The translations under genes and the position numbers were made by a program. DNA of 64,000 bases, taken from positions 128,001-192,000 of the forward strand of contig JBMORA010000063.1 of NCBI GenBank assembly GCA_049320885.1. Direction: 5' to 3'. Below are positions 24,401 through 36,349 of the stretch, piece by piece. Position 1 is the first letter of the stretch. The number at the start of each line of letters is the position of its first letter. The notes under the pieces are model-generated. The model worked only from the letters and a program-made list of their open reading frames with translations. It was not told where the DNA came from and ran no database searches. This DNA comes from Thermodesulfobacteriota bacterium (GTDB lineage Bacteria > Desulfobacterota > Desulfobacteria > Desulfobacterales > SURF-7).

Positions 24401-24441
24401 AATATGGCCGGGAGCTTGGTTTTTATGGAGTTCAAGTTCAC
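21406..24441 (-). CDS. Hybrid sensor histidine kinase (CHASE4-HAMP-PAS-PAS-HK-REC)
   Basis: DWSAWDDT CHASE4 motif, GGIAHDFNN, GTGLGL, C-terminal REC; GTG start at 24441 overlaps the glgP stop (GTGA). Confidence 0.92.
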   Translation of the reverse strand: MNLNSIKTKLPAIFLGLFILYGTADYAVQRFIVYPSFLALEHQEAVRDLNRCLQSLRREVYHLDSLCHDWSAWDDTIEFVRSMTPAYIETNLPVETFVTNKLNLICFYNEGGALVWGNMVHPDTGEQITRQDILPDQLPPDHPLVAWESIRKPLTEKSVIGVMMTQRGPLLVASRPIITSKNEGPVRGAVIMCRFLGRELVSALMAQAQVDFDIFPIGLEEFTGEKREVLQLMESGSRHIIRNADKDHLNIYGTFPDIDQKTALLLQATIPRKISRQGDITVRYAVSSIAAAAFFMLMIVLFLTRRILLDPIMKLIQHVQAIGTSGDLSARLNLRRMDEIGILADTFNQMLAKLQTKTMELEKVNQDLVEDVAKRRQAEEELGRAQALLTAAVEQTPAGIIIVDAPNLKLRIANKAAVEILGDLHPDQWEGFHPDGRLMTHDELPLLQAVKEGKIIQNAEIVIKRRDGEERWVLGNAAPVRDESGGIAAGVVVFPDITDRKRAMETLKRSEEKYRLLVENAQDAIFLLQNGHFLFGNPRTLELLGFTAEALSRTSLLELLHPDDAPAVLEHLAKCSRGEGIASPWTFRIVNPSKDVIWVQMNAVLISWEEYKAVLCFARDVTESKRMEKQLLQAQRMESIGTLAGGIAHDFNNILYPIIGYTEVAMRHLPEGDSRPRNYLERVLAAAGRAGELVQQILTFSRRSEHEMKPMLLHPVIKEGMKLLRASIPTTIEIVQDIDTDCRPVLGNPTQIHQIIMNLCTNAYHAMEEAGGRLEVSLKEVELGPEVARELIDTAPGRYARLTVQDSGCGISADIIGKIFDPFFTTKPEGKGTGLGLSLVHGIVKEHGGSLLVESEPGKGTVFTIYFPVFGKEKGLETEGAVLPLPTGTEHVLIVDDEPMIVEMLREMLEDLGYQVSSCNGSAEALEAIRARAGQFDLVISDVTMPYMTGDELAEQIRRIRPGLPVILCTGFSERIAPEKPLKAGAAAMIMKPVRQQTMAHVVRSVLDKST

Positions 24442-26945
24442 CTGCTTTTTTTGGATTTCAAATGGATGGGAACTTTTTCGATCCTCCAGATTCCATCGCA
24501 GTATTCCCGGATGGCCCGATCCGACGAGAACTGCCCCATGCGGGCGACATTCGCCATGGACATGCGCGTCCACAGTTCCGGGTCCAGGTATGTCCGGTTG
24601 ACCCTGTCCTGGGCCTCGATGTACGCCTGATAATCCGCCAGAAGACAATAGGAATCATGATTCAGGAGGGATTCAACCAGGTTCCTGAACAGATCCCGGT
24701 CTCCGCCGGCCAGGGCTCCCGAAGCGATCAAATCCAGAACCTCGCGCAGCTGAGCGTTGTGCTCATAATACTCCCGCGGCCGGTAGCCCCGCGCGTGGAG
24801 ATCCTGAATCTCATCGGCCGTGAGACCGAACAGGAAAAAATTGTCGGGCCCGACCTCCCGGCGAATCTCGACATTGGCTCCGTCCAGGGTGCCGATGGTC
24901 AGGGCGCCGTTCATGGAAAACTTCATGTTGCCGGTGCCGGAGGCTTCCTTTCCGGCCGTGGAAATCTGTTCGGAAAGATCCGCGGCCGGATAGATGGCGT
25001 GGCTGTTTTTGACATTGAAATCCGGAAAGAAGACGACTTTCAAGCGTCCCCGGATATCCGGATCGTTGTTCACCAGCTCGGCGGTGGAGTTGATCAGCTT
25101 GATCATGAGTTTGGCCGTGACATAGCCCGGCGCCGCTTTCCCCCCGAAGATACATGTCCGGGGAGGCGCCTCCAGCCGGGGATCCCGCTTGAGTCTCAGG
25201 TACAGCGTCAGGATATGCAGCACATTCAAATGCTGGCGCTTGTATTCATGGATCCGTTTGACGTGGATATCGAAGAGGGAATGCGGGTCGACCGGGATAC
25301 CGGTCCTTTTATGGATCAGGGCGGCCAGGGATTGCTTGTTGGTCAATTTGGCATTGCGCCATTCCGCGCGGAAATCGGGATCGTCCATGAATTCCTCGAT
25401 GGCGTTGATCCGGCTGAGATCGCTGATCCATCCCCGGCCGATCCGGGAGGAAATCAGCTCGGTCAGGCAAGGATTCGCCAGGACCATGAACCGGCGCTGG
25501 GTAACGCCGTTGGTAACATTGGTGAACTTCTCCGGCCAGAGCCTGAAAAAATCCCGTAAAACATCCCGCTTCAGCAATTCGCTGTGAAGCCCGGCCACGC
25601 CGTTGATGGTATGGCTGCCGACGCAGGCAAGGTTGGCCATGCGCACATAGCGTTCTCCGGCTTCATCGATCAGGGACAGTCTTTCCGCGAGTCCGGAATC
25701 TTCCGGATATCGCTCCCGGACATCGGCCAGGAAACGGGCGTTGATCTCATGGATGATCTCAAGATGACGCGGCAACAGGCGCTGAAAGAGCGGAAGCGGC
25801 CATTTTTCCAAGGCTTCCGGAAGCAGGGTATGGTTGGTGTAGGAGAACGTGCCCTGCACGATCTCCCAGGCCGGCTCCCATTTCATACCGCGTTCATCGA
25901 TGAAAATCCTCATCAGTTCGGCAACGGCGACGGCGGGATGGGTGTCGTTCAATTGCACGGCGTACTTGACGTGAAAGCTGGAGAGATCGGCTTTTTTCTG
26001 CTCATAAATCCGCAGCATGTCCTGCAGGGAGCAGGAAACGAAAAAATACTGCTGCAACAACCGAAGTTCCTTGCCCGCGGCCGGCTCATCGTTGGGATAG
26101 AGGACTTTGGTGATATTTTCCGACACCATCTTGTCTTCCACCGAACCGTAATAATCCCCCACGTTGAAGGCCTGAAGATCGAAGGATTCGCAAGCTTCGG
26201 CCTTCCACAGCCGCAACAGGTTGGCCGTATTGACGGCATACCCTAAAATGGGGGTGTCATAGGGGATGCCCCGGATAACCCGGTCCGGAATCCAGCGGAC
26301 TTTATAGCGTCCATTCTCGTCATGATACGCCTCGGTTCGTCCCCCGGCCTTTACTTCCAGGGCCAGCTCCGGATGGGCGATCTCCCATGGATTTCCCAGG
26401 CGCAGCCATTTATCCGTGACCTCGACCTGCCAGCCGTCCTTGATTTCCTGATCAAATATACCGAATTCATAGCGGATGCCGTAACCGATGGCGGGGATGC
26501 TCAGGGTGGCGAGGGAATCCATGTAGCATGCGGCGAGGCGTCCCAAACCGCCGTTTCCCAGCCCGGGCTCCTCCTCTTGCTCGATCAGGCGGTCCAGATG
26601 GAGGCCCAGCTCCTTCAGGGCCCGGCGGGTTTGATGGTCGATACCGAGGTTGATCAAATTGTTGGCCAGATGAGGCCCCAGCAGGAATTCGGCGGAAAGG
26701 TAACACACGGTCCGGCTGGCCTTTTCGCGGTAGGTCTCGGCGGTGTTGATCCAGCGGTACAGCAACCTGTCACGCACGGTATAGGCCAGGGCGAGATAAT
26801 AATCGTTGGGCGTGGCCACCGCCGGAAACCTGGCCTGATGATAAAACAGATTATCGATGAAATCCTGTTTGATGGCCTTTACGCTGCAGCCGGTGCGCGC
26901 GTTCTCCGGTTCCCGGTAAGCAGGTTTGACGGGTTTTACGGTCAT
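24438..26945 (-). CDS. glgP: Glycogen/starch/alpha-glucan phosphorylase
   Basis: GLGNGGLGRLAAC, QLNDTHP, KRIHEYKRQ, EASGTGNMK (PLP Lys). Confidence 0.97.
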   Translation of the reverse strand: MTVKPVKPAYREPENARTGCSVKAIKQDFIDNLFYHQARFPAVATPNDYYLALAYTVRDRLLYRWINTAETYREKASRTVCYLSAEFLLGPHLANNLINLGIDHQTRRALKELGLHLDRLIEQEEEPGLGNGGLGRLAACYMDSLATLSIPAIGYGIRYEFGIFDQEIKDGWQVEVTDKWLRLGNPWEIAHPELALEVKAGGRTEAYHDENGRYKVRWIPDRVIRGIPYDTPILGYAVNTANLLRLWKAEACESFDLQAFNVGDYYGSVEDKMVSENITKVLYPNDEPAAGKELRLLQQYFFVSCSLQDMLRIYEQKKADLSSFHVKYAVQLNDTHPAVAVAELMRIFIDERGMKWEPAWEIVQGTFSYTNHTLLPEALEKWPLPLFQRLLPRHLEIIHEINARFLADVRERYPEDSGLAERLSLIDEAGERYVRMANLACVGSHTINGVAGLHSELLKRDVLRDFFRLWPEKFTNVTNGVTQRRFMVLANPCLTELISSRIGRGWISDLSRINAIEEFMDDPDFRAEWRNAKLTNKQSLAALIHKRTGIPVDPHSLFDIHVKRIHEYKRQHLNVLHILTLYLRLKRDPRLEAPPRTCIFGGKAAPGYVTAKLMIKLINSTAELVNNDPDIRGRLKVVFFPDFNVKNSHAIYPAADLSEQISTAGKEASGTGNMKFSMNGALTIGTLDGANVEIRREVGPDNFFLFGLTADEIQDLHARGYRPREYYEHNAQLREVLDLIASGALAGGDRDLFRNLVESLLNHDSYCLLADYQAYIEAQDRVNRTYLDPELWTRMSMANVARMGQFSSDRAIREYCDGIWRIEKVPIHLKSKKSR

Positions 26946-26967
26946 AAGCGGATATCCTTGCAGGTAA

Positions 26968-26988
26968 GCCGCCCGTTATGCGGGCGGC
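26968..26988. terminator. Hairpin immediately after the lipoprotein stop
   Basis: GCCGCCCG-TTATG-CGGGCGGC 8-bp stem. Confidence 0.4.
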
Positions 26989-26991
26989 GGT

Positions 26992-29670
26992 TCACTCCAC
27001 CGGACGGCCTTCGGAATAGGAAACCGTCTCGACTACCGGCATGTCACCCATGCCGTGCTCCGTATAGATCGGGATATCCGTCAGGCTGATCGCCCAGGAC
27101 TCGTCCATCTCCAGCCCGCCGGGATCGTCGACCGAAAGCAGGAACAGACTTCTCTCCAGGGGTTTGACGACGTAGACCGCGCCGGTGGTTGTTTCCGTCA
27201 GCAGGGTGCCGGCCGGCAGGTTGATGATCTTATCCCGGATGGCCCGGGTCACGACCCACCCGGACTTTTCCAGTTCTTCATACAAATCCGGCAGCCCCAT
27301 CATCCAGCCGTCATACCCCAGGGACAAAGTCCGGGCCTGTCCGGCGCCGTTTGTTAAGGCGATGTCATCGAACCTCAGGGGGTCGTCCAGCAGTTTGTAA
27401 TCGTTCCCCTCCATCAGATAGGTCACCCCGCCCGCTCCCGAAGCGTCATATTCCCAGTTGAAGGACACGCTCTCGCCGCCGATGACCGCCTCAATCCCCC
27501 ACAGCGCGGGCGCGATATCCCCCTTGGCGGCCAAGGGGACGCCGTTGGCATCGATATCGTTGTCGCCGATGCGGTCGTATACCAGCATCATATAATCCGG
27601 ATGAGTCGGATCGGTGACGAACCGGTAGGTCGAATTGGCGTCCGGATTCCACTGGTCATAAAAAACCGTCGTGTTTCCTTCCGGTAACACGGACGCGAGG
27701 TTCACCGGATTGCAGGCCGTCTGGATTTCGTTTTTGACGGTGATAACGCCGGCGCTTTTCCGGACCACATAGGCCGTTCCCTGCATGTCCATATACACTT
27801 CCAGTCCCTCCGGGAACAGGAACGCCCGGTCCGCGCCTTCCACGAATTTGGGCGTCCACGTGAATTCGTCGAAATAATCCAGCTGTTTTTCCACCCAGCC
27901 GACGGCGGCGCCTTTGTATTCAATGAAAATTCGGCCCCAGATATCGACCCAGAGCCGATCGACGCTGTCGGTATCGATGGGCACCCTGGGGAAGAACGGC
28001 TGTGCGATGATTCCCGAATCGCCCTGGATTTCTTCCGCCTCGTAAAAGCCGGCTTTGCCGCCATTCACCGCGGCGGCTTCCTCGTAAACGTAGATTTTTT
28101 CCTCCATGGTCTGCCAGTCCCAGCCCCGGATGGAGACGGCTTTACCGGAACCGGTTGCACCGCCCACCAGGGTATTCAGCCCCACAGTCGCGTCGAAGTC
28201 TTCGAATTTTCCGGATGCGCAGACCGGAGGATCGGCGGCCCAGTCCATCCGGGAGCAATATTCCCAGGCGCCGTCGTTATAGAACAGGTTGTAGTTCTGA
28301 TTGATCATGACCTCTGCGGGAATATTCTGGATATCGATGAGATCGGCTTCCTGATAAGTCCTTTTCACCAGAACCCCGCCGAATGACCTTCCCACCGTAT
28401 ATTCCTCCGCCGGCCGGTTCGGCGGAAGATCTTCGCGGGAAACCACGATTCCCATGGAGACAGGGCTCCCGTCATGGGTCCAGATCTCGTGACGTCCCCG
28501 CCAGACGCCGTAATAGGCGTGCTTTTCGACGCCTTCTTCCGTGTAGCGGATGGGGAAACCGAAGGATTTGGTCTTCAGGACATCGTCGCCGCTTTCGGCC
28601 TGATACACGCCGTAGCGGTGGGTCATCATGACCATGTGATTTCTGTCCCGGTACTCCACCTCTCCGTCCTGGCCCTCCTGGACGGCCAGATAGCCGTCGT
28701 TGTAGGCATAAACGGCCGTGCGGTGGGGCACGCCCCCTGATTGATCGCAATCCGGACAGAAATAGGCGTCATAATCCGGATAGTAAATCTTCCCGTATCC
28801 GCGGGAGGCCGACCGGTACATCACGGCCTTGGTTTTGACATCCAGTCCCTCTTCCCCGATCTGTCCCATGCCCGACAATTTCTGATACAATCGGATTTTG
28901 GCGAATCCGTTTTGCGCCGGCCGGCAATCGGCCACGAAATAGTCTTCGTCGCCGATTTCATCCAGTTTGACGTTCATGTCCCATACACCGTAATCCTGAT
29001 AGGTGCCGTCGGTGTTCAGCACCGGAGGAGAGTAAATTCTGAATTCCGCCTTGATGACCGGCGTGGCGGATTCAGAGATTTTTTCAATCCAGGCCTGCAC
29101 CAGCAGGTATGGTTGCTCACCGTCCGTCACCGCTTCGGATTGGACCAGCCAGTTCTCCAGTTTCTTCTGAGTGCGGCCCTCGTTTTTCTCCTCGACCGCC
29201 ACCATGGCTCTGTAGGGTCCGTTGCCGATCTCCTTTTCGTATTCCGTCTGGTCGATGGCCCTCAGGATCTCCTCCAGCATGGCGAACTGTTCCAAGGTGT
29301 TTTCCTCGACATAGGTCCGGGTGACGGCGGTGGCGTAATCCGTTCCGGGATCAGCGGCGTCATGCGGAATCCCGTCCGCGGCTTCCATTCCGGAAGGAGA
29401 TTCCGCCCCGCTCGATACCGGAACCGCCGACAGTTCGCTCGGCATGGTATACCGCGCCAGCTGGCTCCGGACCTCATCGGGATTGACGGGAACCGTGCCG
29501 CTGTCGCTCAATACATTGGCGCCGTGGTCGACGCTGCAGGCGTTCAAGGCCGCGACCGTCAGCAGCAGCAATCCAAGACGGACAGCCCGTCCGGCAAGGC
29601 GCAACAGCCCACCGGATTCGTCATTCCCAAATGAATCATTGCCCGCCGGTTTCCATCCTTGTAACATCAT
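26992..29670 (-). CDS. Large acidic putative lipoprotein of unknown function (~890 aa)
   Basis: GAGGGAGG RBS before ATG 29670; hydrophobic stretch LGLLLLTVAALNA-C (lipobox-like); D/E/G/Y/W-rich; no domain recognised. Confidence 0.7.
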   Translation of the reverse strand: MMLQGWKPAGNDSFGNDESGGLLRLAGRAVRLGLLLLTVAALNACSVDHGANVLSDSGTVPVNPDEVRSQLARYTMPSELSAVPVSSGAESPSGMEAADGIPHDAADPGTDYATAVTRTYVEENTLEQFAMLEEILRAIDQTEYEKEIGNGPYRAMVAVEEKNEGRTQKKLENWLVQSEAVTDGEQPYLLVQAWIEKISESATPVIKAEFRIYSPPVLNTDGTYQDYGVWDMNVKLDEIGDEDYFVADCRPAQNGFAKIRLYQKLSGMGQIGEEGLDVKTKAVMYRSASRGYGKIYYPDYDAYFCPDCDQSGGVPHRTAVYAYNDGYLAVQEGQDGEVEYRDRNHMVMMTHRYGVYQAESGDDVLKTKSFGFPIRYTEEGVEKHAYYGVWRGRHEIWTHDGSPVSMGIVVSREDLPPNRPAEEYTVGRSFGGVLVKRTYQEADLIDIQNIPAEVMINQNYNLFYNDGAWEYCSRMDWAADPPVCASGKFEDFDATVGLNTLVGGATGSGKAVSIRGWDWQTMEEKIYVYEEAAAVNGGKAGFYEAEEIQGDSGIIAQPFFPRVPIDTDSVDRLWVDIWGRIFIEYKGAAVGWVEKQLDYFDEFTWTPKFVEGADRAFLFPEGLEVYMDMQGTAYVVRKSAGVITVKNEIQTACNPVNLASVLPEGNTTVFYDQWNPDANSTYRFVTDPTHPDYMMLVYDRIGDNDIDANGVPLAAKGDIAPALWGIEAVIGGESVSFNWEYDASGAGGVTYLMEGNDYKLLDDPLRFDDIALTNGAGQARTLSLGYDGWMMGLPDLYEELEKSGWVVTRAIRDKIINLPAGTLLTETTTGAVYVVKPLERSLFLLSVDDPGGLEMDESWAISLTDIPIYTEHGMGDMPVVETVSYSEGRPVE

Positions 29671-29686
29671 GGTGCGCCTCCCTCTT

Positions 29687-30979
29687 TCAATTGCTGTAGG
29701 ATGCGGAAATATAGACCCGGAGGTTCTGGATATCCGCATCCTGTATCACCGGGGTACTACTGATGGCCTGGGCCTCGCCCGCGCCGAATGCGTAAGAGAC
29801 CCCCAGGGTAACGCTCGTCAGCCGGTGGAACAGGGTGTAGCTCAGACTCAGTCCGTAAATGTCGATATGCTCTTCCTGGTTGACTTTCCCGGACTCCAGA
29901 TCCGGCGTGTTGGCGAAATCCGTGTAGAATCCCGCCCGGACGGCCATGTCGTCCCGGAAATAATATTCAGTGCCCAGAAAGACGTTGCACACGGACTCCT
30001 TTTCATCCGCCGAGCTGTGCCAGCCCACATCGCCCGAGAACAACAGGCTGGGGGAAACGAAATAGGCGGCGCCGAATGTCAGGCTCACGGGCAGGGTCGG
30101 TTTGTCGCTGGTATTTTCGCTCTTGAAATAGATCGTGTCCGGATCGCTGAAATCATAGCTCAGCCCGTCGATATTGACCGGCTGCGCCGCCGCCGTGTTC
30201 CGGTAGATGTCATGCCGGGTGGTCTCGTTGTTGAGCACAACCACCTGGGACATGGAAAGCCCCAGGGCCAGTTTTTCCATGGGTTCCCAGATGGCGCCCA
30301 GGGAAGGTCTGATACCCCAGTCGTTGCGGGTTTCATAATAATTGATCAGAATATGCTGCCCCTGGTTGAACTGGATCAACTGGTTGCGGATGATTTCCCG
30401 ATCCCTGAAATAGGCGTATACCGTCGCCCCCATGGCCAGGGAATCGGAAAAGCGGTAGGCGTAGGAGGGTCCGAACAGATAGGTCCGGTCACTGTCGTTG
30501 ATGTTGATCATGACGGTATCCGCCGGGTTGTCGGCGAATTCCGTGCGGATATCCTGGAAATACTGTTTCTGGCGGCGCTGGATGGAATCCGTCACCGCAT
30601 AGGACATACCGAGCATGCCGTTGCCCCCGAACTGCCGCACCAGACCGAAAAAATTCGGCAGCAGGCTGGAAGACACCTGCTCCCAGTCCTGGGTCCCGCC
30701 GTCGGTTCCGGTCAGCACGTCCCGATAGGTCTTGACCTCCGAATTATAGGCGTTCACACTGGCGGAAAGGCTGAGATTCGGCGCAAAGGCAATGCCCGCG
30801 GGATTGTAAAAGCAACCCGCGGGATCATCCGCCAGCGCCGTGTAGGCCCCTCCCATTCCAGCAGCCCGGTCGCCGATGATCATGTTGACGTAATGCTGCT
30901 CGTCCGCGACCGAAACGCTTGACGCCAGGAGCCACAGCAAGCCGGACACCATCCATTTTCTAGTGGATAACATTTTCAT
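29687..30979 (-). CDS. Outer membrane beta-barrel, FadL/OmpP1-like
   Basis: Signal peptide, GDRAAGMGGAYTA..D..FYNPAG hatch motif, alternating beta strands, aromatic near the C-terminus (SYSN). Confidence 0.8.
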   Translation of the reverse strand: MKMLSTRKWMVSGLLWLLASSVSVADEQHYVNMIIGDRAAGMGGAYTALADDPAGCFYNPAGIAFAPNLSLSASVNAYNSEVKTYRDVLTGTDGGTQDWEQVSSSLLPNFFGLVRQFGGNGMLGMSYAVTDSIQRRQKQYFQDIRTEFADNPADTVMININDSDRTYLFGPSYAYRFSDSLAMGATVYAYFRDREIIRNQLIQFNQGQHILINYYETRNDWGIRPSLGAIWEPMEKLALGLSMSQVVVLNNETTRHDIYRNTAAAQPVNIDGLSYDFSDPDTIYFKSENTSDKPTLPVSLTFGAAYFVSPSLLFSGDVGWHSSADEKESVCNVFLGTEYYFRDDMAVRAGFYTDFANTPDLESGKVNQEEHIDIYGLSLSYTLFHRLTSVTLGVSYAFGAGEAQAISSTPVIQDADIQNLRVYISASYSN

Positions 30980-31790
30980 GGAACCTCTCCGCAACCGTTG
31001 CGTTTTTCATCTGCGCCAGGCCGCCCGCTGTCAGCACCGCATCCATTGCCGCGAATCTGACCCGATGAAGCGGGTAATCTCCCTGGTAGTTCCGATCCTC
31101 GACCTCAAACCGCCCGGCCTCCGTCAGGAATTGCTTGAGGGCGGCGGGATCGTATCCAGCCGAGGCCGCCATGAGCATGCCGATACGATCGGCCTCGATT
31201 TCATCCGTCACCTTATACCCTTCCCGGAACAGAATGTCGGCGGCCCGGTCCATGGCCTGCTCCAGGGACTTCACGGCGCCGCCGGTGGCGCCGCCGATCA
31301 GGCCGGCAATACCGGCCACGGCCGAACGGTCTTCTCCTTTGATATTCAACTCCCGAATGACGTGCCGCTCCGTAATATGGGCGATTTCATGCCCCAGCAC
31401 ACCGGCCAGCTGGGCTTCGTTGGCCATTTTCAGCAACGCTCCCCGGGTGATGAACACATACCCGCCCGGAGCCGCATAGGCATTGATATCATCGGAAGCA
31501 AGCACCCCGAAATAATAGATCAGTTCCGGCCGTCCGGAATGCAGGGCCGTGGCCCGGCCCACCAGGTTGACATAGCGGTTCAGTTCCGTATCCTCATCCA
31601 GGCCGTAGGCGCCGAGGATCCTGGCCGCCAGTTCCCGTCCGAAGAGGATCTCCGCCTCGATGGCTTCCGCCTCCCCGGAACTTTGGGCCATGCTCGAAAT
31701 CCGTTTCCGCCCGTCACCGGCAACGGCGGGGATGGTCGGAAGCCAGACGATCAGCAGTAAAATCGACATCCAGTTACCGGTGCGTTTCAT
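30960..31790 (-). CDS. M48 family zinc metallopeptidase, secreted
   Basis: Signal peptide, INAYAAPGGYVFITRG, EAQLAGVLGHEIAH (HExxH), EIEAD, AGYDP. Confidence 0.9.
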   Translation of the reverse strand: MKRTGNWMSILLLIVWLPTIPAVAGDGRKRISSMAQSSGEAEAIEAEILFGRELAARILGAYGLDEDTELNRYVNLVGRATALHSGRPELIYYFGVLASDDINAYAAPGGYVFITRGALLKMANEAQLAGVLGHEIAHITERHVIRELNIKGEDRSAVAGIAGLIGGATGGAVKSLEQAMDRAADILFREGYKVTDEIEADRIGMLMAASAGYDPAALKQFLTEAGRFEVEDRNYQGDYPLHRVRFAAMDAVLTAGGLAQMKNATVAERFHENVIH

Positions 31791-32364
31791 GGGCCGTCCC
31801 TTCCTGTAAAAACATCAGCGCCTGGCTTTCGGTGATGTCCACCGATTCCATTTTTTCCAGGGCCTCATAATCCAGCCGGTGCCCGGAGTGAATCCGCAGG
31901 CGGTTTTCCCTCAACCCCCTGGCCGCCGCCACGGAGGAATAGGCCGAGGATCTTCGCCGGGATCGGTCGGAAAACAATTTATATTTATTCAGCAGGGACG
32001 TGAAGGCGCCGTATATATCCCGCTTTTTCACCGGCGGCTTGACCGCCACCTGGAAGGAATAGATCCATCCGGACCGGCCTTGATGGGACACCTGATGCCA
32101 GTATTCCGCTTTTTTGAGGCCGGAGATCCGGGTACCCTGTTTCAGTTCAAACAGCTTTTCGGAACCGGTATCCGGCATCAGGTAGACCTGGGCCTTGACG
32201 CTGGCGACATACAGATCGTAAGCATTACACCGGGGCGGCGGCAACGCCGTCATGGCAGCCACGACCGCAGCCATGAGGATCAATTGGGGATATGCCGCCC
32301 CCCCCTTGCGGATTGGCCGGTCATTTTGCCGGTCATTTTGCCATTCATTTTGATTGATGCGCAT
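31774..32364 (-). CDS. Secreted SH3-like domain protein with C-terminal AAARGL helical segment (start uncertain)
   Basis: Hydrophobic leader, then YV.SVKAQVY..P...LKQG....WHQV..QGRSGWI (bacterial SH3 pattern); overlaps both neighbours. Confidence 0.7.
   Translation of the reverse strand: MRINQNEWQNDRQNDRPIRKGGAAYPQLILMAAVVAAMTALPPPRCNAYDLYVASVKAQVYLMPDTGSEKLFELKQGTRISGLKKAEYWHQVSHQGRSGWIYSFQVAVKPPVKKRDIYGAFTSLLNKYKLFSDRSRRRSSAYSSVAAARGLRENRLRIHSGHRLDYEALEKMESVDITESQALMFLQEGTAHETHR
32316..32352. repeat. 12-bp tandem repeat, about 3 copies (GCCGGTCATTTT)
   Basis: gccggtcatttt gccggtcatttt gccattcatttt spanning the cyclase stop codon. Confidence 0.7.
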
Positions 32365-34525
32365 AGAACCCGTCCCAATCCTCCGGCGGAGGATTTTCCA
32401 GATAGTGTCGACACCGCGCAATAAAAAGTTCCGCCGGGACATCCCGGGGACGGAGGGCCCGAATCCGCTCATACGTCGCAATCGCTTCCGGAAACCGACG
32501 TTCGCGGTACTGCGAGAACGCCTGCTCGGAAAGCGCGACCACCGTCCGGAGCTCCGGGTCCACGGAGCCGGTTTCATCCAGAACTTCAAAAATGGCGATG
32601 GGTTTTCGCTTGCCCTTGACTTTGACGTAATCCGCCAGCCGGCAGACGATGCGATCCTTGATCCGGTCATGGGTGTCCTGGCTGACCAGGATGGTGCAGC
32701 CGTAGGTCTTGGTAAGGCCTTCCAGCCGCGAGGTCAGATTGACGCTGTCGCCGATCACCGTATAGTCCAGCTTTTTTTCCGAGCCGATGTTCCCCAGGAT
32801 CACTTCCCCCGTATGGATCCCGATGCCGATCTTCAGGGGCGGCATTCCTTCGGCCTCGTTTTCCCGGTTCAGTTCCTCCAGGGCCCGGCGCATCTGCAAT
32901 GCCGATAGGACCGCCCTGTGAGCGTGATCTTCGATTTTCACCGGCGCCCCCCAGAAGGCCACAATGGCGTCGCCGATGAATTTATCCAGGGTTCCCTGGT
33001 GCTCGAAAATGATGGCCACCATTTTGGACAGGTAACGGTTCAGCAGGGCCACCACCATTTCCACCTGGTGGGTTTCGGAAATCGAAGTGAAACCCCGGAT
33101 ATCGGAAAAAAAGACCGTCAGTACTTCCTTGGAGCCCACCTCGGCCCGGAAATAGTCTTCCTTGTAGTGTTCCAGCACATCCCGGAGCATGGCGGGCGAA
33201 ACATACTGACCCAGAATATTGCGGATCCGCCTTCTTTCCCGGCCCTCGGTGGCCATGGTAAAGACAAATCCGGAGATATAAGCCGACAGAAAGGCGACGG
33301 ATGGCGCCGTTACGTTCATTACCCAGTTCCTTCGGAACAGGTACAGACACACCCCGTAAAACAAGGCCATCACCAGAACCGGAACCACCGCCCGCAGGGT
33401 AACATTGCGGAAGAACAACACTGCCCACAGCGTCAACGCCGCCGCCAACAATACCGTCGGCGCGGTGATGGGAAAAGCGGCAAACCGCAGGAAATCTCCG
33501 GTCATGATATTTGCGTAAACCGATGCTTGCAGCATTACGCCCGGCAATATCGACCCCAGGGAGGTCATTTTCAGATCCTGGGCGCCCGCGGCGCTGGCAC
33601 CCACGAAAACGGTTTTGCCCTTGAATTCCTCCGGCCGGAACGGCAGGTCGGTATGGTTTCCCTGATCCAGTTCCCATTTGGTTTTCAGGACCCCGCTGAT
33701 GGAAAAGGCCGGGTACCGTCCATATAGATGAAGATAATATTCGCCGTCTTTCGTCAGGGGAATGCGAATATCCCCCTCCGCTTTCCGGAGAAACAGATCG
33801 CCTTCCCGAAAAAAGGCGCTGCGGCTGCCGGTGTTGATCAGAGCGGCTGCCAGTCCCAATGAAGGCAAGCGGTTGCCCCGGTAATCGAACACCAGGGCCT
33901 CGCTGCGGAAAACCCCGTCCCGATCCGGCACGAAGGTGACCACGCCAACACCGGCGGCGTGGGGATACAATTCTTCAAAGGGCAGATAATACTGGTTGAA
34001 AGGGATCAGCTCGGCGGCTCCCTCCATGGAAAGGGAAAAACGTTCGGTGAAATCCCGGGGCAGCGGCTCATTTTGGGTGGAATCCGGGTCATCCATCACC
34101 AGCTGGGCCGCATGGAAAACCATGGCCGCTTCCCGGGTCGACTCCGCCAGACGGCGGTCCGGTTCGCTCAAGCCGTCCGCCGCATCGAGGCCGACCTTCT
34201 GGTGCTGGGTGAACAGAATATCCATCACCACGGCCCGGGCCCCGCAATCCCTCAGGAAATCGATGAGTTCCGCATGGACATCCCGGGGCCACGGCCAGCG
34301 GCCCACCAGCGGATCCAGGGCATGCAGGGAGGCGTCGTCGATCAGGACGATGGCGATATCATCCGGCAGGGGGGTTTCCGACCTTGTCAGCTGCATGCGG
34401 AGGTCGATGCTCTTCCGTTCGAGGATATCCAGGAATCCCGAACCATCGCCGACCATGGCGAGCAGACTGATCAGCAGGATGATCCAGACGCTTTTCGACA
34501 ATTTCTGTTGCTGGGGCAACGGCAT
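32345..34525 (-). CDS. CHASE2-domain class III adenylate cyclase with C-terminal TPR-like tail
   Basis: CHASE2 (IDDASL..GRWPWPR, DILF, DRDGVFR), 3 TM, FSDIRGFT, DKFIGDA (ATP-specifying Lys), YTVIGDSVNLTSRLE. Confidence 0.93.
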   Translation of the reverse strand: MPLPQQQKLSKSVWIILLISLLAMVGDGSGFLDILERKSIDLRMQLTRSETPLPDDIAIVLIDDASLHALDPLVGRWPWPRDVHAELIDFLRDCGARAVVMDILFTQHQKVGLDAADGLSEPDRRLAESTREAAMVFHAAQLVMDDPDSTQNEPLPRDFTERFSLSMEGAAELIPFNQYYLPFEELYPHAAGVGVVTFVPDRDGVFRSEALVFDYRGNRLPSLGLAAALINTGSRSAFFREGDLFLRKAEGDIRIPLTKDGEYYLHLYGRYPAFSISGVLKTKWELDQGNHTDLPFRPEEFKGKTVFVGASAAGAQDLKMTSLGSILPGVMLQASVYANIMTGDFLRFAAFPITAPTVLLAAALTLWAVLFFRNVTLRAVVPVLVMALFYGVCLYLFRRNWVMNVTAPSVAFLSAYISGFVFTMATEGRERRRIRNILGQYVSPAMLRDVLEHYKEDYFRAEVGSKEVLTVFFSDIRGFTSISETHQVEMVVALLNRYLSKMVAIIFEHQGTLDKFIGDAIVAFWGAPVKIEDHAHRAVLSALQMRRALEELNRENEAEGMPPLKIGIGIHTGEVILGNIGSEKKLDYTVIGDSVNLTSRLEGLTKTYGCTILVSQDTHDRIKDRIVCRLADYVKVKGKRKPIAIFEVLDETGSVDPELRTVVALSEQAFSQYRERRFPEAIATYERIRALRPRDVPAELFIARCRHYLENPPPEDWDGFYAHQSK

Positions 34526-34664: not shown

Positions 34665-35429
34665 CTAACACATGGTCAAACCGCCACTGACGCTGATCAC
34701 CTGGCCGGTGATGTACCCCGCCTCGTCGGAAGCCAGGAAGACGATGGAATGCCCGATATCCTCGGGTCGGCCCATTCGTTTCAAGGGAATGATCCGGTCC
34801 ATGTCCGCCAGGATCCGGCCGGCAAATTCATCGGCGGATCTCATCTCGGCGAACAGGGGCGTCGAGGTGGGCCCCGGGCAAATCACATTGACGGTGATCC
34901 CGTTGCGCGCCAGTTCCCGGGCCATGGTTTTGCTGAATGATATCACCGCCCCCTTGGCGCCGGCATAGACCGCCTCGCCCAGGCTGCCCACCCTGGCGGC
35001 GTCAGAGGCGATATTGATGATCCGGCCCCTGTTCCGCGCCATCATCTCCGGGGCGATGGCATACACCGTATTCAACACCCCCTTGAAATTGATGTCGATC
35101 ACCTTGGCCCAAAACTCCGGCGTGGTTTTCACAAAAGGAACAACCCGGTCCCAGCCGGCGTTGTTCACGAGGATATCAATGGGCCCCAGCTCCCGGTTGA
35201 TCCGCTTCACCATCTCGCGGACGGATTCGAGTTCCGTGATATCGGTTTCGACAGCCAGGGCTGTTCCCCCGGCCTTGACGATTCCGGCGGCCGTTTCCCG
35301 GGCTTCCTCCGCCGACAGGTCGGCGATGGCCACCCCGGCGTTTCGCCCGGCGAGGAGCGTGGCGATTCCCCTGCCGATCCCCCTCGCCCCGCCGGTGACG
35401 ACGGCGATTTTATTCGACAGATCAAACAA
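34665..35429 (-). CDS. SDR oxidoreductase, 2-hydroxycyclohexanecarboxyl-CoA dehydrogenase (BadH)-like
   Basis: TGGARGIG, NNAGWD..PF, SDAARVGS.GEAVYAGAKG (YxxxK), ISVSGGLTM; TTG start. Confidence 0.75.
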   Translation of the reverse strand: MFDLSNKIAVVTGGARGIGRGIATLLAGRNAGVAIADLSAEEARETAAGIVKAGGTALAVETDITELESVREMVKRINRELGPIDILVNNAGWDRVVPFVKTTPEFWAKVIDINFKGVLNTVYAIAPEMMARNRGRIINIASDAARVGSLGEAVYAGAKGAVISFSKTMARELARNGITVNVICPGPTSTPLFAEMRSADEFAGRILADMDRIIPLKRMGRPEDIGHSIVFLASDEAGYITGQVISVSGGLTMC

Positions 35430-35464: not shown

Positions 35465-36205
35465 TCAGGCGTTGTCGCTGCCGTAGTCCTTCAAGATCCG
35501 GGCAACATAGTTCCGCGTCTCTTTGGGCAGGCCGCCCTCGCTGTTTTCCAGATTGCCCATGCCCCAGTTATAGGCGGCCAGGGCCATTTTCACATCTCCG
35601 CCGTAACGGTCCAGAAGACCCTTGAGGTAGCGGGTGCCGGCCATGACGTTCTGCTCCGGATCATAGGCATTGGTCACCCCCAGTTCCCGGGCCGTTTCGG
35701 GCATGAGTTGCATGAGCCCCATGGCCTTTTTGGGCGAGGTGGCCTCGGTGTCAAAACCGCTCTCGGCCCGGATGACCGCGACAATGAGATCCCGGTCGAC
35801 ACCGTAGGTCGCGGAGGCCTTGTCGATGACCGCGTCCAGGGATTCGTTCTTCACGGGGCTCCTGCAGGTCGCCGGGTGGTATCCGTTACCGGTTTCCACG
35901 GCCGGGCGTCTGCCGACATCGGCCATGGGAATCGCGAAAGCCGGCTCCGCCGTCGAAAGGTCACCCTCTTCCTCCGCGAAGGCCTGGAGGATCGCTTCAT
36001 TCATTTGGGAGCGGATCACCTCCAGCCGGGCGGCAAGCCATTTGGCGTCCGTGGGCGCTTCCCCGCCGGCGCTTTCCAGGGCAGCATTTTTCAGCAGGGT
36101 CGCGAATTCAACCGCCCCCGGAAGGGTGTTCCGGGCTCCCGGGCGGTTCCCCGGCAATAGATTCCGGATACCGCGACCCTGGATTTCCGGTGACGATACT
36201 TTCAT
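35465..36205 (-). CDS. Lytic transglycosylase (SLT domain)
   Basis: AVIRAESGF (catalytic Glu), AMGLMQLMP, ALAAYNWG; AGGAGG RBS. Confidence 0.9.
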   Translation of the reverse strand: MKVSSPEIQGRGIRNLLPGNRPGARNTLPGAVEFATLLKNAALESAGGEAPTDAKWLAARLEVIRSQMNEAILQAFAEEEGDLSTAEPAFAIPMADVGRRPAVETGNGYHPATCRSPVKNESLDAVIDKASATYGVDRDLIVAVIRAESGFDTEATSPKKAMGLMQLMPETARELGVTNAYDPEQNVMAGTRYLKGLLDRYGGDVKMALAAYNWGMGNLENSEGGLPKETRNYVARILKDYGSDNA

Positions 36206-36349
36206 TGGGGCCTCCTGACGGCAGGCTTGACGGGTGAAAAGCGGATAGCAGATGCCCGTAATATACGTCACAATCCGCTTTCATGTCAAGAAATACATGA
36301 ATTCAGGATGTTGATGAGCGCGAGAGAAAACCGGAACCGGGGAAACGCC

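Follow-up and report, generated by a model that had tools for sequence, protein, structure and literature searches.

The 64,000 nt window analysed here (contig JBMORA010000063.1 of a Thermodesulfobacteriota bacterium whose closest named relatives are metagenome-assembled genomes of the Desulfobacterales) contains a cassette of four genes, encoding a CHASE2 adenylate cyclase, an SH3-tail protein, an M48 zinc protease and a FadL-like outer-membrane barrel, that is a conserved co-localised unit across many lineages and is followed in the window by a lipoprotein gene. The cassette is real and uncharacterised, its nearest known system being NsrA-CyaK-Clr of Sinorhizobium meliloti, and the five-gene form is a lineage variant, not a fixed system. 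The five open reading frames (ORFs) lie back to back on the minus strand in the order cyclase, SH3-tail protein, M48, barrel and lipoprotein (window positions 34525-26992), with overlaps of 20, 17 and 20 nt at the first three junctions and a gap of 16 nt, enclosing a purine-rich ribosome-binding site, between barrel and lipoprotein. An earlier annotation made from the sequence alone (the original prediction) had described five co-directional genes with overlapping or 16-bp junctions, encoding an inner-membrane CHASE2 class III cyclase with ATP-specifying Lys and Thr, a secreted SH3-like protein, a secreted HExxH M48 peptidase, an outer-membrane barrel with an NPA hatch motif and a lipoprotein of about 890 aa, and all five ORFs, the motifs and the junctions were found as described.

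Near-full-length matches were used to collect loci anchored on the SH3-tail gene; 61 relatives gave 33 such loci, and a sample of 301 genomes from the phylum gave 51. An M48 gene adjoined the SH3-tail gene in 31 of the 33 relatives' loci and in all 51 phylum loci (82/84 in all). Two relatives' loci with weak SH3 matches and no M48 (L146 and L147) were left out of the partner counts, as were SH3-only matches, giving 31 relatives' loci, and seven broken or truncated loci were excluded from alignments A5 and A6. The partner of the SH3-M48 pair was a CHASE2 protein or cyclase in 17/31 relatives' and 37/51 phylum loci and a TPR-CHAT protein (about 2,600 aa where complete) in 10/31 and 3/51, respectively, and the two partners never occurred together. 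The barrel was present in 7/31 and 9/51 of the loci, with a cyclase alongside in all 16 of these genome loci. The layers are nested, with a near-inseparable SH3-M48 pair that is accompanied by a CHASE2 cyclase, a TPR-CHAT protein or neither, and a barrel found only at cyclase loci. We also examined a barrel-anchored metagenome set, the best 80 of 226 confirmed loci, in which M48 was present in 65, the SH3-tail protein in 56 and a cyclase domain in 48; of the 33 loci that had 4 kb or more of upstream sequence, 28 showed the cyclase. The first four genes very probably belong to one functional unit.

The cyclase matched CHASE2 (PF05226; 173.9 bits, E 6e-51) and Guanylate_cyc (PF00211; 97.1 bits, E 1.3e-27), and hydrophobic segments at residues 9-27, 346-364 and 368-386 leave an extracytoplasmic CHASE2 domain between membrane helices, the arrangement of a CHASE2 receptor. 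Residues D475, K515, D519, T589, N596 and R600 were all present and were invariant in 45/45 aligned cassette cyclases. We take the residues of this kind in class III enzymes to be two metal-binding Asp, an Asn/Arg transition-state pair and a Lys plus Thr/Asp pair that specifies adenine, and on its residues the protein is a predicted class III adenylate cyclase in which K515 and T589 are the Lys and Thr named in the original prediction. The genome from which the window derives has eight CHASE2 matches, three strong Crp-type helix-turn-helix matches and, on contig C38, a second, paralogous triad of SH3, M48 and CHASE2 cyclase that has neither a barrel nor the lipoprotein. The C38 triad (L080:7332-11041) differs in gene order, its M48 is a lipoprotein with an intact THP, and its SH3-tail protein carries the tail motif LAGKGF. 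Another CHASE2 cyclase of this genome has, at a distance of about 2.3 kb, a Crp-type regulator that is a candidate receptor for cyclic AMP (cAMP; C13:111953-116609), and an MscS channel with a cyclic-nucleotide-monophosphate-binding domain, a candidate direct cAMP effector, was repeatedly found beside barrel-less cassettes (L157, L158, L184 and L196).

The SH3-tail protein scored 24.9 bits against SH3_3 (cut-off 27; E 2.3e-5), and its profile matched SH3b structures at E 3e-12 and SH3_3 clusters in Atlas at 0.97; the start of the gene is backed by its two closest homologues. Tail motifs, read by eye, differed by partner class, with ARRR..AAARGL at barrel loci, E(L/V)ALAGKGF at loci with a cyclase only and SRSIRGL at CHAT loci, and a core of small-small-[RK]-G-[LF] was common to all of the tails. 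The pair stood directly behind a caspase-like TPR-CHAT gene, with an SRSIRGL or SAIRGL tail, in L131, L133-L140, L143, L181, L186 and L189; that the Arg-Gly of the tail is a CHAT cut site is speculative. Among proteins of 299-2000 aa the SH3-tail profile matched five multi-SH3 or cell-wall proteins; none was fused to M48 or CHASE2, which is a weak test.

The M48 protein scored 86.4 bits against PF01435 (cut-off 20.3; E 2.9e-24) and carries HEIAH at 134-138 and the distal E197 expected of the family; the zinc ligands and catalytic Glu were invariant in 77/77 aligned M48 sequences. The structurally characterised protease to which it is best compared is BepA of E. coli (PDB 6SAR and 6AIT), with which it shares the HExxH plus Glu zinc site, and residues of the family align with BepA His246, Asp205 and Arg252. 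According to the accessible text of Daimon et al. (10.1101/2020.07.07.192476), BepA is kept latent by His246, the H246A variant is hyperactive, chaperone-like activity exists alongside proteolysis and PDB 3C37 is a BepA homologue from G. sulfurreducens; the accessible part of a 2026 preprint by Voedts et al. (10.64898/2026.07.01.735768) describes a plug held by R252 and D205. Unlike BepA (487 aa, with TPR), the cassette protease has 276 aa, lacks the C-terminal TPR and has a fixed SH3-tail partner, and with 106.7 bits against the BepA equivalog NF052400 (cut-off 570) it falls outside BepA proper. It also departs from BepA at the switch, having Tyr239 (codon 31074-31076) in place of the 'HP' histidine equivalent to His246. 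A His occupies this site in 80 of 84 aligned rows, three others being truncated or frameshifted, which leaves the Tyr unique to the window among 81 complete rows, and both congeners retain the His. The codon is the same in the one spanning contig, which may not be independent of the window's DNA, and the window M48 could be an allele that is deregulated or in decay, or else the Tyr could be an assembly variant. The original prediction had not noted this substitution. A further His, common to close relatives, lies two residues past Tyr239.

The barrel scored 37.7 bits against Toluene_X/FadL (PF03349; cut-off 29.7, E 1.1e-9), and its NPA at 59-61 was invariant in 16/16 barrels. In common with FadL/TodX channels it has this family score, the NPA motif and a weak match to 3DWO, a FadL homologue from P. 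aeruginosa; a difference is that none of the recurrent neighbours scanned was a gene for the catabolism of fatty acids or aromatic compounds. It was also unlike PorV and BamG barrels, falling well under both NCBIfam cut-offs (41.6 compared with 90 bits and 32.7 compared with 250 bits, respectively). Two barrel copies stood on either side of a lipoprotein gene in L206, L207 and L220.

PMC7529298 and PMC13001267 establish, as the original prediction had stated, that CHASE2 cyclase signalling in S. meliloti depends on the outer-membrane barrel NsrA, and the cassette resembles NsrA with CyaK, CyaD1 and CyaD2 in combining an inner-membrane CHASE2 class III cyclase with an outer-membrane beta-barrel. 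The S. meliloti output runs through the Crp-type Clr to genes of hypothetical, partly secreted proteins (PMC7529298, PMC13001267 and PMC10127613, in the parts available), and output through a Crp-type regulator would be a further likeness. As described, the two systems differ in that the cassette has a 430-aa barrel of the FadL family and adds an M48 protease and an SH3-tail protein, neither of which is mentioned for the NsrA system in the available parts of the same three sources. A literature search, mostly of open-access titles and abstract openings, returned no description of the cassette and none that joined CHASE2 or SH3b with M48 and adenylate cyclase, in line with the original prediction, which knew of no functional description of the five-part module. 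Few CHASE2 cues are understood; the worked-out S. meliloti case requires an outer-membrane barrel in addition to a protein as the signal, and the cassette supplies three candidate partners and one short motif.

We tentatively read the cassette, with somewhat less than even confidence, as a protease-gated envelope sensor that makes cAMP, and the lipoprotein as a captured surface protein under cyclic-nucleotide control. Underlying this reading are the observed gene order, domains and intact catalytic residues, the SH3-M48 pairing, the restriction of the barrel to cyclase loci, the class-specific tail motifs and the elements upstream of lipoprotein genes described below. The SH3-tail protein would bind M48 through its small-small-[RK]-G-[LF] tail, and the intact tail would keep the periplasmic CHASE2 domain in one state. 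The barrel would supply or relay a cue, and a cue arriving at or through it would free the latent M48, which would cut the tail, or possibly hold it, and so switch cAMP synthesis. Acting via a Crp-type regulator, cAMP would reach surface lipoprotein genes, and in this genus the window lipoprotein would be co-transcribed with the cassette. The proposed logic resembles that of the ExoR-ExoS system of S. meliloti, in which the zinc protease JspA is reported to remove a periplasmic regulator and thereby to switch a membrane sensor; the likeness is one of analogy only, the sensor there being a histidine kinase and the regulator not an SH3 protein. Alternatively, M48 might serve as a scaffold or chaperone that does not cut, with the SH3 protein as a peptidoglycan-binding adaptor that shows a cell-wall cue to CHASE2, as the matches of the SH3 profile to SH3b domains of cell-wall enzymes and the chaperone-like activity reported for BepA (accessible text of 10.1101/2020.07.07.192476) would allow, but the invariance of the zinc ligands and catalytic Glu in every aligned M48 speaks against it and we consider it improbable.

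The lipoprotein belongs to an unnamed family of 161 matches (identity 38-71% among the 120 listed) and had no significant match in Pfam and no family in the Pfam and NCBIfam scans. A genome scan anchored on it, with 138 confirmed matches, returned 71 loci, in only two of which, both from congeners, the cassette adjoined the lipoprotein; the neighbourhoods of the remaining loci were varied. The lipoprotein was found in 2/31 relatives' and 0/51 phylum SH3-M48 loci. When 50 lipoprotein genomes (drafts) were searched whole, six had the barrel (four strongly) and 44 had none, and in a phylum sample of 300 genomes the barrel was present in 11, the lipoprotein in four and both in two, the lipoprotein being undetected in nine of the 11 barrel-cassette genomes even with a broadened profile. 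Of the 49 loci (among the best 80 of 226) that extended 1 kb or more downstream, four had a lipoprotein homologue next to the barrel, arranged in tandem in L205 and L208 and convergently in L202, while that in L236 was divergent and very distant. Since these locus and genome counts couple the lipoprotein so rarely to the other genes, the conserved unit is the four-gene cassette, with which the lipoprotein is associated loosely but repeatedly. The five-part module of the original prediction is therefore not supported, all five genes co-localising in 2/71 lipoprotein loci, 0/51 phylum loci and 4/49 barrel loci (two in the same tandem order), and the neighbourhood analysis of SH3 and M48 homologues that it had suggested upholds the cassette in many lineages without the lipoprotein as a part.

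Sequences upstream of the lipoprotein genes pointed to their regulation. Of the 30 Nitrospirota loci, 18 were tested, and 15 of these had a c-di-GMP-I class riboswitch (for cyclic di-GMP, c-di-GMP) directly upstream of the gene; no Rfam riboswitch was found upstream in 12/12 loci outside Nitrospirota. In the Nitrospirota riboswitches the base preceding GGCAAAC, which presumably decides between binding of c-di-GMP and of 3',3'-cyclic GMP-AMP, varies between A, G and C (e.g. L015:9692-9790 and L049:4012-4108), and L019:1033-1400 has tandem aptamers. We scanned 69 regions upstream of lipoprotein genes with the CRP consensus TGTGA-N6-TCACA and found a box with at most one mismatch in 12, compared with 0.9 expected; among Gammaproteobacteria such a box was present at 9/19 lipoprotein loci, falling into about five sequence clusters, compared with 5/107 neighbouring promoter regions. 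FNR boxes were in slight excess (4 compared with 0.7 in shuffles at one mismatch). Perfect TGT-N10-ACA palindromes occurred in 8 of the 69 regions, compared with 0.46 expected, among them TGTTA-N6-TAACA and TGTCA-N6-TGACA (L205, gap before 5440; L286, upstream of 7175), and are possible sites of other Crp-family regulators. Because two phyla place the family behind two different cyclic-nucleotide elements, the lipoprotein fits an output gene and is likely to be an output of cyclic-nucleotide signals, not a sensor; the window copy, which has neither element, seems instead to have been drawn into the operon of the cyclase. That the family stands, depending on the phylum, behind a CRP box, behind a c-di-GMP-I riboswitch or in last place in a cyclase operon points to an output in surface lifestyle and gives a first handle on a widespread, unnamed family of 800-900 aa lipoproteins.

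The model of the original prediction, in which lipoprotein and barrel jointly sense an outside signal in an NsrA-like or SusCD-like manner and relay it to the cyclase, draws on the recurrence of the tandem order in L205 and L208, on the presence of the lipoprotein in 2/11 barrel genomes compared with 2/289 others (kin that are not independent) and on the window's own family, where a full barrel and a lipoprotein homologue coincide in eight of 18 genomes, with linkage confined to this genus. This co-occurrence, however, combines two lipoprotein subfamilies that are about 22-28% identical, and in a ninth family genome, of 85% completeness, part of a lipoprotein was found but no barrel. The arrangement is not of the SusCD type, no TonB-receptor family having been found at E 0.1 in the Pfam and NCBIfam scans and the barrel being so seldom linked to the lipoprotein. 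The absence of the lipoprotein from nine of 11 barrel-cassette genomes, the lack of a barrel in most lipoprotein genomes and of the cassette at 69/71 lipoprotein loci, and upstream elements typical of an output gene all count against a sensory lipoprotein, and we regard joint sensing as quite unlikely.

The position beside the barrel nevertheless attracts lipoproteins of other kinds. Gly/Ser-tethered lipoproteins made up 10/99 genes flanking metagenome barrel cassettes and 1/27 in genome barrel loci, compared with 0/118 genes flanking barrel-less SH3-M48 loci, control loci that come from other taxa than the metagenome barrel set, and 4/229 distal genes; the tether of the window lipoprotein is itself too divergent for this filter. 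The ten flanking lipoproteins, which had no Pfam match when scanned, represent seven unrelated families; with the barrels clustered at 70% identity, they are spread over 9 of the 58 clusters. The barrel-lipoprotein pairing of the original prediction thus survives in part, as an enrichment of unrelated lipoproteins beside the barrel, with the specific lipoprotein rarely linked. The recurring lipoproteins fit co-regulated outputs or barrel clients. A further unnamed family, of 1,600-aa lipoproteins without Pfam match, lies directly downstream of the barrel in L224:9208-14025, L242:2105-6940 and L227; a 1605-aa barrel-adjacent lipoprotein was considered as a member of the 892-aa family and rejected, its homology being limited to the signal peptide.

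Two accounts build on this enrichment. In the first, which extends the gated-sensor reading and which we think unlikely, the FadL-like barrel, a latent M48 and an SH3 'bait' would form a trans-envelope circuit that monitors or delivers Gly/Ser-tethered lipoproteins and reports to the CHASE2 cyclase, whose cAMP drives them; SH3-M48 would be a plug-in proteolytic switch whose tail motif is adjusted to its partner, either a cyclase or a giant protease of caspase-like type, and CHASE2 would have the SH3 tail as its protein ligand. In the second, barrel, SH3 and M48 would be an export, anchoring or quality-control unit for large lipoproteins of this kind, the cyclase would report load and the 892-aa protein would be an interchangeable client. 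The diversity of the flanking families suits an export unit, as do the BepA-like M48, the weak scores of the barrel on the PorV and BamG models and the lipobox (by regular expression and eye), which is missing from most barrel-class M48s and present in many barrel-less ones. Against it stand the 44/50 lipoprotein genomes with no such barrel, the 53/63 barrel loci that no such lipoprotein adjoins, the taxonomic difference between control and metagenome sets and the missing BepA TPR domain, and we find this account, too, doubtful.

The window lipoprotein could instead be a functionally unrelated passenger moved beside the cassette in one genus. The coupling of barrel and lipoprotein at 16-31 nt is indeed confined to the three genomes of this genus, and in two sister genera the lipoprotein lies on other contigs, mostly one to two genes from the same glycosyltransferase-like gene. 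In the sister genera (L279-L281, L283 and L032), two distant lipoprotein subfamilies have the same glycosyltransferase-like and methyltransferase-like neighbours (names assigned by eye), which suggests that one subfamily replaced the other in place. The linked state, however, requires five changes on the lipoprotein tree and five on the barrel tree (FastTree and quick IQ-TREE), although 6/7 linked barrels fall inside one 22-row clade, and homologues at 4/49 barrel loci are far above chance for a gene in 4/300 genomes. A pure genus-level passenger is weakened by this linkage, the tethered-lipoprotein enrichment and the tree changes, and seems to us rather improbable: the window lipoprotein, with about five gains or losses of linkage and with lipoproteins flanking barrel cassettes, is more than a chance passenger.

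Several observations weigh against a protease-gated cAMP sensor with a lipoprotein output. Neither a cyclase nor CHAT stood beside SH3-M48 in 4/31 relatives' and 11/51 phylum stretches as fetched (some of them short contigs), so the pair is not dedicated to the cyclase, and the tail motifs may track ancestry instead of partner. Because the window M48 has no switch His, this strain may have altered or lost the gating. A CRP box was found at just 1/14 lipoprotein loci outside Gammaproteobacteria and Nitrospirota, and upstream of the window operon there was no CRP box (best three mismatches) and no riboswitch; that cAMP controls the lipoprotein is therefore an extrapolation for this lineage, and for the window copy we infer it from relatives. 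Lipoproteins beside the barrel also agree equally well with an export or a receptor role.

The predicted structure of the lipoprotein is beta-rich and confident (predicted local distance difference test 84.3, predicted template-modelling score 0.78). A Foldseek search of the full-length model on PDB gave no credible match (best template-modelling score 0.11), and Atlas matches were below 0.9. A likeness to maltoporin (VIA-align Z 8.5, root-mean-square deviation 4.9, 196 residues) was rejected, as many porins tied, indicating a generic curved sheet. Residues 472-484 and 703-713 include a Cys pair invariant in 73/73 close homologues and a DxDxDG-like acidic loop, a possible disulfide and calcium site.

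Table 1. Features of the cassette locus in the window.
Feature	Position	Strand	Details
CHASE2 class III adenylate cyclase, predicted inner-membrane	32345..34525	-	726 aa; CHASE2 19-369, catalytic domain 465-642
SH3b protein, predicted exported, conserved C-terminal tail	31774..32364	-	196 aa; RRRSS-x4-AAARGL barrel-type motif
TPR-less M48 zinc protease, predicted exported	30960..31790	-	276 aa; H134, E135, H138, E197, D201, R245 present
FadL/OMPP1-family outer-membrane beta-barrel	29687..30979	-	430 aa; NPA at 59-61
Beta-rich lipoprotein, unnamed family	26992..29670	-	892 aa; lipobox Cys46; cassette accessory, likely output
GC-rich hairpin without U-run at lipoprotein stop	26963..26995	-	not called by the terminator scan

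The window had no Rfam match, and promoter and terminator scans gave no more matches than shuffled sequence. The GC content of the region is similar to that of the remainder of the window. Beyond the GC hairpin, 46 nt past the lipoprotein gene, the co-directional run continues, further than the original prediction had noted, with a glycogen phosphorylase gene (24438-26945), and short-chain dehydrogenase and lytic transglycosylase genes (34665-35429 and 35465-36271) lie upstream in the same direction; the three neighbours recur beside the cassette only within this genus.

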